From Candidatus Pacearchaeota archaeon (GTDB lineage Archaea > Nanobdellota > Nanobdellia > Pacearchaeales > GW2011-AR1): a stretch of DNA of 64,000 bases. Every line of letters begins with the position of its first letter. The first letter of the stretch is position 1. Positions 7,569 through 28,746 of the stretch are shown piece by piece. The notes under the pieces are model-generated. The model saw only the letters and a list, made by a program, of their open reading frames with translations. It had not been told where the DNA came from and did not search any database. The DNA lies in contig CAXNIJ010000002.1 in assembly GCA_964202455.1 (NCBI GenBank), forward strand, positions 5,667-69,666. Direction: 5' to 3'. The translations under genes were made by a program, and so were the position numbers.

Positions 7569-8255
7569 TTATTTTTCACTTGGTGATTCAACTTTATCTT
7601 CCTTATATTCAATATAAAAGTTACCTCTTCCAATAACTACTCCTTTTCCAAAGTCTTGTTCGACAATACATTCAAAAGAATATAATCTCTTTCCACTAAT
7701 TAATTCTTCAGGGTCGACCTTATTAATTCCATTGGAAGTATTAAATTTTACACGATTAATAGAATTTAATATTCCTTCTCTAAAATGTCTAGGTTTAAAA
7801 GTAAATACCCCTAAAGGTTTTCCCTTGTAAGAGTTACTTGAATTTTTATCAGAACAATCCAAACTTTGATTAAGTAAAATTGCATCAGTATAAGTGTCTC
7901 TGAATATCACTCTAAATTTCTTACCCCAACATTTATCTTCTGGAATAAATACTCCGACAACGGCCTCTGGGGGAATATTTTGAACAGTCATAAATGGTAA
8001 AAAATTTGAGAATTCTCCATAATCTCTTTTCCCATTTCTATTTTCATCCAAAAAATAGCCAATAGTTGCATAATCAATAATTAGTTTTCTTTCGAGATTA
8101 ATATCTTCATTTGGACGCAAAACAGAAGGAATATTTGTACTTGAACTAAAATCTCTTAGATTTAAAATTCCAGACTTACCTAGGTCTCCCAAGACAGTTG
8201 AAACTGTCAATGCTGCAAGGACAGTATTTTCTGCTAAACGTTTAACTAAACTCAT
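7569..8255 (-). CDS. Hypothetical exported protein
   Basis: 228-aa ORF with hydrophobic N-terminus, a DENRNGKRDYGE Ca-binding-like loop and its own upstream TATA-like box. Confidence 0.6.
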   Translation of the reverse strand: MSLVKRLAENTVLAALTVSTVLGDLGKSGILNLRDFSSSTNIPSVLRPNEDINLERKLIIDYATIGYFLDENRNGKRDYGEFSNFLPFMTVQNIPPEAVVGVFIPEDKCWGKKFRVIFRDTYTDAILLNQSLDCSDKNSSNSYKGKPLGVFTFKPRHFREGILNSINRVKFNTSNGINKVDPEELISGKRLYSFECIVEQDFGKGVVIGRGNFYIEYKEDKVESPSEK

Positions 8256-8310
8256 AATTTGAGCAATAAATGGGTCTTTAAGAGCCTTGCGGTAACACTC
8301 GTTTTTGGAT

Positions 8311-8362
8311 GCTGAGAGAACTCAGAGTTCTCGAAGCGTTCAGAAACAAGATGTTTCTGACG
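8311..8362. repeat. Dispersed tandem-hairpin repeat, type A
   Basis: Minus strand reads CGTCAGAAAC-ATCTT-GTTTCTGA-ACGCTTC-GAGAACTC-T-GAGTTCTC-TCAGC; related copies at 37083 and 47906. Confidence 0.8.
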
Positions 8363-8401
8363 AGCTGCGGAGTATGTCTACTCAAAATGTAATAAAAATT
8401 A

Positions 8402-8693
8402 ATCACCTCCCTATCTGATTCGGATATACTCTTCTGCCTTAACTAAGGACTTAGTGAAGAGTCTTGAAGAATCAGGAATTTTTTTATTCTTGAGTTCCAT
8501 CGTGAATTAAAAAATTCACGAGGAATCATACATTCATTCGGATAAACACTCGTGCCTTATACAAAGGTCTTGTGTTGAGTGTTTTGAAGAATAAATCTTA
8601 ACGCATACAATATCAAGTTTCAAACCCATAGAGAGGAGGCTTCACCAATCAAAAAGAGCGATGAAACGTCCTCTCCTGGGAAAAAGAGGTGAT
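8402..8693 (-). ncRNA. Candidate structured ncRNA (~290 nt) of unknown family, with a duplicated domain
   Basis: Paired termini ATCACCTC/GAGGTGAT, four internal stem-loop domains (two are covarying copies), no ORF, and a BRE/TATA at 8715-8730 spaced like the tRNA promoters in this window. Strand is not fully certain. Confidence 0.6.
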
Positions 8694-8714
8694 ACTTATA
8701 CTATATCTAGTGGC

Positions 8715-8730
8715 TATTTAAATCTTTCGG
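8715..8730 (-). promoter_or_regulatory. BRE-TATA promoter pointing into the 8402-8693 element
   Basis: Minus strand CCGAAAGA-TTTAAATA; scpA has its own separate TATA near 8780. Confidence 0.65.
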
Positions 8731-8808
8731 TCTGTTGTAACTATTAAATGAAAACATTTACTCTGAATAAATAAGAAGGCATATAAAGAACGGGAAATTC
8801 CACAATTA

Positions 8809-9774
8809 ATGGATGAAGAGGAGTTTTCTCAAGAAATTAATGAAAAAGAAAAACCGCCTGTACAAAAAATCGGACAAGAACAAATTCACGGCTTATTATT
8901 TAGTGATTCACTTAGCTGGCAATCAATAATTTACGATTTAATAAATACTGAACAACTTGATCCTTGGGACATTGACTTATCTATTTTATCACAAAAGTAT
9001 CTAGGAAAAATAAAGTTATTAGAAGAAGAAAACTTCTTTATTTCAAGTAAAGTTCTTCTTGCAGCCGCGCTTTTATTACGTTTGAAATCAGAAATTCTTC
9101 TTAATCAGGATATTCCTGGTCTTGACGCAATATTATATGGTCATAAAGAAGATAAAAAATATCATCAGGAGAGAATAGAACTTGATGGTGAAATTCCCGG
9201 CCTGATGGTACGTACTCCACTTCCTCGATACAAAAAAGTAACTCTGGAAGAATTAATGCATGCTCTAGGAAAAGCAATTAAAACTGAAAATAGGCGCATT
9301 AGAAGAATTGTCATAACCAAACAACAAGAATTTGAAACTTCGCTTTCTATGCCAAAAACTAAGGTCAATCTTAAAGACCAAATTACAAGTATTTATAGAA
9401 GATTAAAAGAAATTTTCTCAAAAAGAGACACTCGCTACCCTTTCTCAGAATTAGCTGGTAAAAGTACAGAGGAAAAAGTAGCCGTATTTGTCCCTCTTCT
9501 CCATCTAGACAATCAACAAAAAGTCTGGCTAGAACAAGATCAACATTTTGAAGAAATTTGGATTCTTCTCAAACATATTTATGAAAAACAAAATGCCGAA
9601 GAACTAGCCAGCATGAAAAAAGAAGCTGAATCTCAAGCAATTCTCGAGATGAAAGACTTCACTCCAGAAGAACTAGCTCGCGCAGAAAAAGTCGAAGAAG
9701 ATTTTAATGATCCCTTGGGTCAAAATACAAAAGAAAATTCACGTCTAGATAATTCCGATGAAGATGAAGAATAA
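8809..9774 (+). CDS. scpA: Segregation and condensation protein A (kleisin)
   Basis: LDPWDIDL, LLAAALLLRLKSE, VTLEELMHAL, FVPLLHL...LEQDQHFEEI. Confidence 0.92.
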   Translation: MDEEEFSQEINEKEKPPVQKIGQEQIHGLLFSDSLSWQSIIYDLINTEQLDPWDIDLSILSQKYLGKIKLLEEENFFISSKVLLAAALLLRLKSEILLNQDIPGLDAILYGHKEDKKYHQERIELDGEIPGLMVRTPLPRYKKVTLEELMHALGKAIKTENRRIRRIVITKQQEFETSLSMPKTKVNLKDQITSIYRRLKEIFSKRDTRYPFSELAGKSTEEKVAVFVPLLHLDNQQKVWLEQDQHFEEIWILLKHIYEKQNAEELASMKKEAESQAILEMKDFTPEELARAEKVEEDFNDPLGQNTKENSRLDNSDEDEE

Positions 9775-28614: not shown

Positions 28615-28746
28615 GCGGGGGTGCCTGAGCGGTTAAAAGGGCAGGACTTAAGAAGTCACTCGTTCGTTAGAACGAATATAGATCAGGAAATCGTTAGGAA
28701 ATCCTGTGGCTTAGTGCCTACGGAGGTTCGAATCCTCCCTCCCGCA
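28615..28746 (+). tRNA. tRNA-Leu(UAA) with a 48-nt intron at 37/38 (28653-28700)
   Basis: GCGGGGG/CTCCCGC acceptor stem, CAGGA-CT-TAA-G[intron]A-TCCTG, long variable arm, GGAGG-TTCGAAT-CCTCC. Confidence 0.93.

Follow-up and report, generated by a model that had tools for sequence, protein, structure and literature searches.

A probable new RNA family of the Nanoarchaeia, encoded beside scpA, with an anti-Shine-Dalgarno-like 5' tail and an accessory domain duplicated in one Pacearchaeota genome

In a window of 64,000 nucleotides from a Candidatus Pacearchaeota archaeon (the whole stretch of DNA analysed here), a gap of 553 nt at positions 8256-8808 contains no open reading frame (ORF) of 60 aa or more. 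It is flanked by a gene for a 228-aa protein without a Pfam match (7569-8255, minus strand) and by scpA (8809-9774, plus strand; PF02616), and it raises the question what is encoded between these two genes. A first-pass annotation had described the region, rightly, as ORF-free, and had proposed that it specifies a novel RNA. We found that the locus very probably holds a genuine gene for an RNA whose family is new and widely conserved. Our preferred explanation, to which we give a probability of roughly 0.35 with the seed mechanism included, is that the locus encodes an independently transcribed non-coding RNA of ~300 nt, an enlarged member of a family of the Nanoarchaeia (DPANN) whose 5' end would serve as a base-pairing seed.

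Strand, promoter and identity of the RNA gene

The predicted RNA runs on the minus strand from 8693 to ~8394. The evidence on strand from G-U pairs had appeared mixed, and this is resolved by the long hairpin of the RNA, in which 48 of 297 cells (summed from the per-pair table) are G-U or U-G when read on the minus sense and A-C on the plus sense. Together with the orientation of the BRE/TATA promoter these minus-specific pairs identify the minus strand as the transcribed one. The promoter, which had also been noticed before, consists of a BRE (CCGAAAG) and a TATA box (TTTAAATA) at 8715-8730 on the minus strand, and its consensus (aA.CGAAAg.TTTAaAtA) recurs at 150 distinct loci of relatives. 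The end of the TATA box lies 21 nt from the A of AUCACC at 8693, and by this spacing we place the presumed RNA start at 8693. Several leaderless ATG starts of this genome share the spacing of 21 nt; CGAAAG-N-TTTAAATA promoters with an ATG ~21 nt later stand before several genes, a pattern which suggests that many mRNAs of the organism are leaderless. Between the promoter of the RNA and scpA, a few nt before the BRE is reached on the minus strand, we found a GTTACAAC motif (8734-8741, minus strand) that also precedes the BRE at many loci of relatives, below the thresholds used for the 150-locus consensus. The RNA and scpA do not overlap, and their promoters are ~75 nt apart.

Read in the direction of transcription, the RNA (all features on the minus strand) starts with a tail of 13 nt (AUCACCUCUUUUU, 8681-8693) and a long hairpin, P2, of 23 bp with a U-rich loop (8625-8680), followed by GGGUUU (8622-8627), a first copy of an accessory domain (8527-8599), a hairpin between the domain copies (8492-8527; supported by folding and by inverted repeat I6), a second copy of the domain (8409-8479) and a Shine-Dalgarno-like strand (GGGAGGUGAU, 8402-8411). 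With the 5' tail this last strand forms a helix, P1, by which the whole RNA is closed and which measures 11 bp in the minimum free energy structure. It corresponds to the terminal helix of the first-pass annotation, in which ATCACCTC (8402-8409) pairs with GAGGTGAT (8686-8693); we recovered it as inverted repeat I8 with 100% complementarity. P1 shows no covariation since its 5' strand, the tail, is invariant, and the evidence for it is retained complementarity. Directly after P1 lies a U5 run (8394-8398), the likely site at which transcription stops, and U-rich stretches also follow the 3' strand of P1 in relatives. The hairpins that had been drawn at 8491-8528 and 8625-8680 are both present, on folding and as inverted repeats. 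The minimum free energy was -99.5 kcal/mol for the minus strand (z -6.98) and -90 kcal/mol for the plus strand (z -5.86), and in both cases none of 100 dinucleotide shuffles did as well. A single matching contig of 151 nt was found in metatranscriptome data, in a run that contained 0.03 of the sampled words; it covers 8622-8751 and thus includes the promoter. Since it spans the promoter and stems from a relative (<90% alike), this contig is uninformative on transcription, ends and strand.

We also observed a copy of a dispersed multi-hairpin repeat at 8305-8362 (minus sense), between the end of the RNA and the 228-aa gene. With blastn, ~12 additional copies, all of them partial and 75-88% identical over 27-64 nt, were found on contigs C1, C2, C3, C4 and C5 of this genome; most of these copies begin with a common CACGATGCGCTACC-like flank and show three successive covarying hairpins.

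The RNA could not be assigned to a known family. At the gathering threshold, the 4227 models of Rfam 15 reported four tRNAs in the window and nothing else. On 8150-8850, a cutoff of E <=10 gave three chance-level matches, the best of which (SscA, with 17 bits where the threshold is 60) fell on the promoter, and on the loci of 20 relatives a cutoff of E <=0.1 gave one tRNA only. No family thus came near its gathering threshold, in line with the earlier description of the RNA as unclassified. That description had also set aside SRP RNA and RNase P RNA, correctly so: in the assembly (G000; 950 kb in 12 contigs, 89% complete) the genes for the SRP RNA (C1:82896-83156, 75.3 bits), the RNase P RNA (C8:32370-32760, 70.3 bits) and the 5S rRNA (C3:6427-6541, 64.3 bits) lie elsewhere, so we rejected all three identities; the 16S and 23S rRNAs are likewise encoded away from the locus. 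A Y RNA was rejected because no TROVE (PF05731) match was found in this genome at its 89% completeness. A K-turn or L7Ae-binding RNA had been suggested by a GGA/GAA tandem-GA loop, which exists on the plus strand only; the RNA lies on the minus strand, where the loops contain no G-A pairs and no tandem G-A, and the suggestion falls. In the published full texts searched we found no description of this RNA family. Most likely the family is previously undescribed, and the principle of action that we consider likeliest for it, that of base-pairing small RNAs, is of a known kind.

Some observations on other RNA genes are added here. The Rfam search reported a tRNA of 132 nt at 28615-28746 (plus strand, 45.5 bits) that was not reported by ARAGORN and probably contains an intron. 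In the rRNA operon (G000:C8:35888-41743) the 23S match measures 3575 nt against 2987 model positions and may hold insertions or an intron, and the 16S-23S spacer of 836 nt contains a tRNA-like sequence. The RNase P RNA lies ~3 kb downstream of this operon on the same strand.

The conserved core and its genomic neighbourhood

When the locus was compared with 60 relatives by blastn, only 8622-8694 was widely conserved, with one matching place per genome even in other families. The conserved unit consists of the promoter, the 13-nt tail, the long hairpin with a CCCAG...CNAGGG base, and GGGUUU. The core RNA measures ~75 nt; the top of its hairpin is variable and the CCCAG/CNAGGG base is kept, and the tail is near-invariant in 152 distinct module sequences and in other orders. 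The hairpin at 8625-8680, taken for a side hairpin by the first-pass annotation, is therefore, together with the 5' tail, the conserved heart of the RNA. A covariance model of the core (R1) matches 8620-8695 (C2:14286-14361) with 97.4 bits. With the structure specified by hand on 13 well-aligned rows, 99% of the 297 cells of the core hairpin were paired and six pairs had changed on both sides, against 43-59% paired in controls in which the partner was slid by one to three columns. In the raw MAFFT alignment of 27 core sequences distant rows were misaligned, and the structure that RNAalifold derived from it was meaningless and was set aside.

The core was found in 143 of 151 genomes of the order, among them 66 of the 68 of high quality, and in 81 of 84 genera, mostly as a single copy (range one to three copies per genome). 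The homologs with covariation that had been looked for are thus present, and both the core hairpin and the accessory domain covary across them, as the first-pass annotation had supposed of the stems. In a phylum-wide sample R1, which was built from one genus and is less sensitive across such a sample, detected 74 of 151 genomes, and those outside the family were all labelled as the same class. In other orders the hairpin is shorter, in some cases with a UUCG loop, and the tail, the CCCAG/CNAGGG base and GGGUUUA are retained; the base of the helix carries an A-A mismatch or a bulged A, these orders included. An exact core pattern, searched against one genome per prokaryotic species, occurred in at least 119 stretches, and among the 80 listed nearly all were titled Pacearchaeota, Woesearchaeota, Nanoarchaeota or Nanoarchaeia.

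Several further occurrences of the core were observed. This genome carries a second full core (C1:75631-75699, plus strand, 79.9 bits) with its own TATA box; a long ORF, OB-fold-like by eye at its N-terminus, follows after 111 nt. A short tail-like fragment (ATCACCTCTTTTTCCCC) occurs at ~54373 of the window (C2:60039). Two genomes of another family contain, as second copies, variant cores that start with GUCACCUC and are not located beside scpA (L189 and L193); a gene for a TrmB-like regulator lies upstream on the same strand, abutting the core in L189 and 302 nt away in L193. In relative G007 a complete core (L036, C7, ~40.6 kb) and a remnant (L008, C7:36455-36530) lie 4.1 kb apart on the same strand, and the remnant comprises the 3' end of the core, the domain and AAAGAGGTGAT; this arrangement looks like that of a gene split by an insertion or duplication. 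Five IMG/VR contigs that are filed as viral (L196-L200) carry the core RNA with 24.8-42.7 bits. Two proposals concerning the core were tried and rejected: a small ORF in the tail, the frame of which is lost where the U run varies in length, and a triple helix between the pyrimidine tail and the purine-rich strand of P2, which shows no covariation and for which some homologues have no purine-rich strand.

The divergent upstream gene of the core encodes ScpA in 54 of 76 loci (blastp), the other 22 having another or a truncated neighbour, and PF02616 confirmed ScpA at seven of nine further loci, of which four belong to the loci from other families and orders. On the downstream side we found no such conservation: the downstream ORFs form clusters of at most three among 66, and among the 60 loci with enough sequence the next ORF of at least 100 aa is convergent in 33, co-directional in 26 and absent in one, sometimes lying within 0-50 nt of GGGUUU. 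This unconserved downstream side indicates an independent small-RNA gene and not a leader. A cis-acting 5' leader (riboswitch-like or an attenuator) of the 228-aa gene at 7569-8255 had to be considered, as the RNA is upstream of and co-directional with that gene, the extra core copies in this genus lie 30-110 nt upstream of ORFs, and P1 hides a Shine-Dalgarno-like sequence. However, besides having no conserved co-directional downstream gene, the RNA has a U5 run after P1, ~140 nt (a copy of the dispersed repeat included) separate P1 from the ATG at 8255, and most relatives have no start codon at Shine-Dalgarno spacing after P1; nor did any conserved ORF follow the Shine-Dalgarno-like strand in the relatives' loci that were compared. 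We consider such a leader very unlikely and rejected it.

Even less probable is that the conservation acts on the DNA, for instance on a palindromic mobile repeat or on a control or loading site for scpA. The locus is rich in palindromes, tightly linked to scpA and close to the conserved GTTACAAC motif, and in one relative it shows a 4-kb interruption with a partial duplicate. Against this, the stems have undergone compensatory substitutions with fixed loops, the G-U pairs are strand-specific, a canonical promoter stands at fixed spacing, and one to three copies per genome do not make a dispersed family; for the copy number and the compensatory changes, a dispersed palindromic repeat or MITE was rejected.

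The accessory domain and its duplication

In the first-pass annotation the RNA was characterized by two copies of one domain. Both copies are present where they had been located, as inverted repeats I1 (8415-8434/8456-8475) and I2 (8532-8551/8577-8596), which form a conserved direct repeat 120 nt apart, and a covariance model of the domain (R2) matches copy 1 with 81.5 bits (C2:14193-14265) and copy 2 with 70.8 bits (C2:14075-14145). On the RNA strand the domain is a rod of three stacked helices: P3a of 7 bp, P3b of 6-7 bp and P3c, CCUU/AAGG with a variable loop. P3a and P3b are separated by an internal loop of 6x6 (UUCAAA / (U)UAUCC), P3b and P3c by an asymmetric loop (...AAG(U) / CA). In 13 copies, 92.9% of the 182 cells of P3a and P3b were paired, with eight of 14 pairs changed on both sides and 36 covarying cells, a score that was reached by none of 500 shuffles. 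The CCTT and AAGG stretches, earlier suspected to form a pseudoknot or switch, turned out to be the conserved innermost hairpin P3c, for which compensatory variants (CCCU/AGGG, CCGC/GCGG, CCG/CGG and CCCA/UGGG) were observed. The ACTAA/TTAGT and ACAA/TTGT hairpins that had been drawn in the domain are not conserved.

Among the 151 family genomes, R2 found the domain in 20 including this one, which amounts to 19 of 150 genera (~13%) besides its own. This genome has two copies of the domain, every other R2-positive genome of the family has one, and the tandem arrangement occurs in only one of 26 distinct RNAs that combine core and domain, namely the present one. The earlier term 'novel tandem-domain RNA' thus holds for an unclassified and structured RNA, but the tandem domain does not define the family. 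In a wider collection, six of 80 loci matched R2 at E <1e-9, and one more weakly (E 0.046). At all loci where both parts could be placed, core and domain share one strand with the domain on the 3' side, and the distance from the start of the core to the end of the domain is 136-248 nt elsewhere and 279 nt here. The hairpin at 8492-8527 has no counterpart in the relatives' RNAs that were compared. A complement to the tail of at least 7 nt, (A)AGAGGUGAU, follows the domain within 30 nt in 19 of 26 distinct RNAs, against one of 26 control windows. A scan of viral contigs with a domain pattern gave at least 117 matches, essentially all of them due to chance; of 85 viral loci scored with a covariance model (80 from the domain pattern and five from the core pattern) one matched weakly (27.4 bits).

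Located just 3' of the RNA in seven loci of other genera (L166, L167, L177, L012, L014, L015 and L008), a second conserved small hairpin was observed. It has a covarying stem of 4 bp (CCGG, CUGG/CCAG, CUUA/UAAG, CUCG/CGAG) and an 8-nt loop, UCUA(A/G)A(A/U/G)U, and is followed by CACGA. It often lies within an outer stem that ends in a U run, and may be a 3' extension of the RNA or a separate small RNA.

The domain shares with the archaeal H/ACA guides the layout of a hairpin with a lower stem, a symmetric internal loop that could act as a 6x6 pocket, and an upper stem; the sequence of its loop is invariant, and in many cases the lower stem is followed by an ANA triplet (AUA or AGA). Moreover, Nop10 is encoded in the genome (31.6 bits), which implies that some H/ACA guide must exist here, and none is annotated. 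However, the domain has no K-turn or K-loop, there being no G-A pairs in the minus-sense loops, and it has no consistent ACA: some RNAs have AUA, AGA or ACA and others no ANA at all. No full bipartite pocket match was found in the 16S, 23S and 5S rRNAs (the scan covered rRNAs and not tRNAs), and the one relaxed match, at position 1634 of the 23S rRNA, has 9 bp with two G-U pairs and three unpaired nt, at a chance expectation of 0.13. Furthermore, an rRNA target would be universal, and the domain occurs in only 19 of 150 genera sampled. That the domain is a pseudouridylation guide is therefore most improbable. We consider it a candidate for a new protein- or ligand-binding RNA motif.

The 5' tail and possible functions of the RNA

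The first 8 nt of the tail are identical to the core of the 3' end of the 16S rRNA (GGAUCACCUCCU), and the 3' strand of P1 equals the consensus Shine-Dalgarno sequence. In this genome 10 of 40 occurrences of GAGGUGA precede ORF starts at Shine-Dalgarno spacing; a 5-mer Shine-Dalgarno sequence was found for 84 of 672 genes, against 44 in controls, and its use is weak overall. When the full 13-nt tail was compared with the genome, no gene showed an extended match, and the only perfect matches are the antisense of the RNA genes themselves. Between the tail and scpA mRNA the median energy was -10.7 kcal/mol, against -10.25 kcal/mol for reversed-sequence controls. Of the 46 best tail sites, 19 fall within +49, where the 5' end of scpA is rich in purines, a clustering that is probably compositional. 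Antisense matches of the conserved loops and the tail to the 16S, 23S, 5S, SRP and RNase P RNAs did not go beyond one site with two mismatches. An Sm-like protein (LSM domain) is encoded at C11:3489-3683 (73.6 bits).

In bacteria, Hfq-dependent small RNAs of the 5'-seed type (e.g. RybB) have a conserved and single-stranded 5' end; a U-rich stretch and a stable hairpin come next, and the 3' end is again rich in U. The layout of the core, with a conserved single-stranded 5' end, a U run, a stable hairpin and a U-rich end, is what leads us to a seed-type reading. According to our proposal, RNAs of this family would act like these bacterial RNAs, by base pairing between the 5' tail and GAGGUGA sites that resemble Shine-Dalgarno sequences; the U run beside the hairpin may be an Sm/Lsm site. 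In the enlarged form the (A)AGAGGUGAU strand 3' of the domain would pair with the tail and create a three-way junction, so that P1 would mask the tail in cis, and a protein or ligand bound by the accessory domains would determine if the tail, or the Shine-Dalgarno-like 3' strand, is free. This base-pairing, masked-tail mechanism, built by analogy, is put forward tentatively, and we rate it as doubtful. We counted against it, besides the weak Shine-Dalgarno use, the lack of an extended target or of rRNA complementarity, the control-like pairing with scpA mRNA and the lack of covariation in P1 described above, that the synteny with scpA and the invariant CCCAG/CNAGGG base with its A-A mismatch are left unexplained, and that internal U5 runs (in the tail and in the loop of P2) resemble archaeal terminators. 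A role as a sponge or scaffold, the function suggested earlier, is possible.

The deep synteny with scpA and the conserved base of the helix point to a protein partner, and a role of the RNA in a protein-bound housekeeping RNP, itself doubtful, is nearly as likely as a base-pairing role. The tail and the helix base would then be the recognition site of a protein, with a partner that might be linked to SMC-ScpA or chromosome biology, or to the small ribosomal subunit; the RNA might for instance be bound by a factor that recognizes the 3' end of the 16S rRNA as well, or P1 might imitate the Shine-Dalgarno/anti-Shine-Dalgarno duplex, with the accessory domains as further protein sites. In line with this, sequence is invariant in the tail and in the CCCAG/CNAGGG base, its A-A mismatch or bulged A included, while the remaining hairpin drifts, nearly every genome of the order has the RNA, as a single copy, ScpA is the divergent neighbour in the majority of loci, and the search for mRNA targets, in the genome and in scpA, returned none that was convincing. 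On the other hand, the synteny may reflect a shared bidirectional control region and not a shared function, the 22 loci with another or a truncated neighbour do not fit, and a link between such an RNA and ScpA was not found in the literature searched.

A further possibility, less likely than these and on the whole unlikely, is that the RNA has a housekeeping function throughout the class as a mimic of the 16S rRNA 3' end (and, with the Shine-Dalgarno-like strand, of the Shine-Dalgarno/anti-Shine-Dalgarno duplex) and acts directly on translation initiation or the small subunit, or is functionally coupled to SMC-ScpA; the accessory domain would then be a true sensor, of a protein or a metabolite, that opens P1. 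Trans-acting small RNAs under riboswitch control, in which a structured sensor is fused to a base-pairing or sequestering RNA, occur in Firmicutes (EutX/Rli55 and SreA). The likeness to these is one of idea only, a sensor domain joined to a base-pairing RNA, with the gating by the domain being our inference, and the present RNA shows no similarity to any Rfam riboswitch.

Compared with small RNAs of the RybB type, the present RNA has a similar layout, its own promoter and a gene that is not tied to a downstream gene. It differs from them in being archaeal and without sequence relation, in having the anti-Shine-Dalgarno of the 16S rRNA as its putative seed, and in the addition of a 3' three-helix domain (twice here), a strand that would mask the seed and synteny with scpA. 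Within the archaea, sRNA162 of Methanosarcina mazei is reported to mask a ribosome binding site to which it base-pairs, and to act with its 5' end on the mRNA of a neighbouring gene as well (PMC3510493). Both are archaeal small RNAs; on informal comparison no similarity in sequence or structure is apparent. sRNA162 overlaps its cis target, unlike the present RNA and scpA, and is restricted to a genus, whereas the present family spans a class (PMC3510493).

The present family is unusual in the combination of a putative seed identical to the anti-Shine-Dalgarno, class-wide retention, synteny with scpA, a covarying accessory domain that is duplicated in this genome, and a closing helix that would mask the seed. 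Its retention in 66 of 68 high-quality genomes, its class-wide occurrence, the strong promoter, the near-invariant anti-Shine-Dalgarno tail and the fixed position beside scpA suggest that the RNA likely does something central. To our knowledge almost no regulatory RNAs have been characterized in the DPANN archaea, whose genomes are tiny. These organisms are difficult to culture, and the RNA offers a concrete starting point for tests of post-transcriptional control, or of an RNP, in them; two covariance models (R1 and R2) are ready for the annotation of such genomes. The accessory domain, which is compact and strongly covarying and has invariant internal loops, is well suited to structure probing. 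If it should indeed be a sensor that opens P1, the RNA would be a ligand-gated trans-acting RNA in archaea, present here with a tandem sensor.
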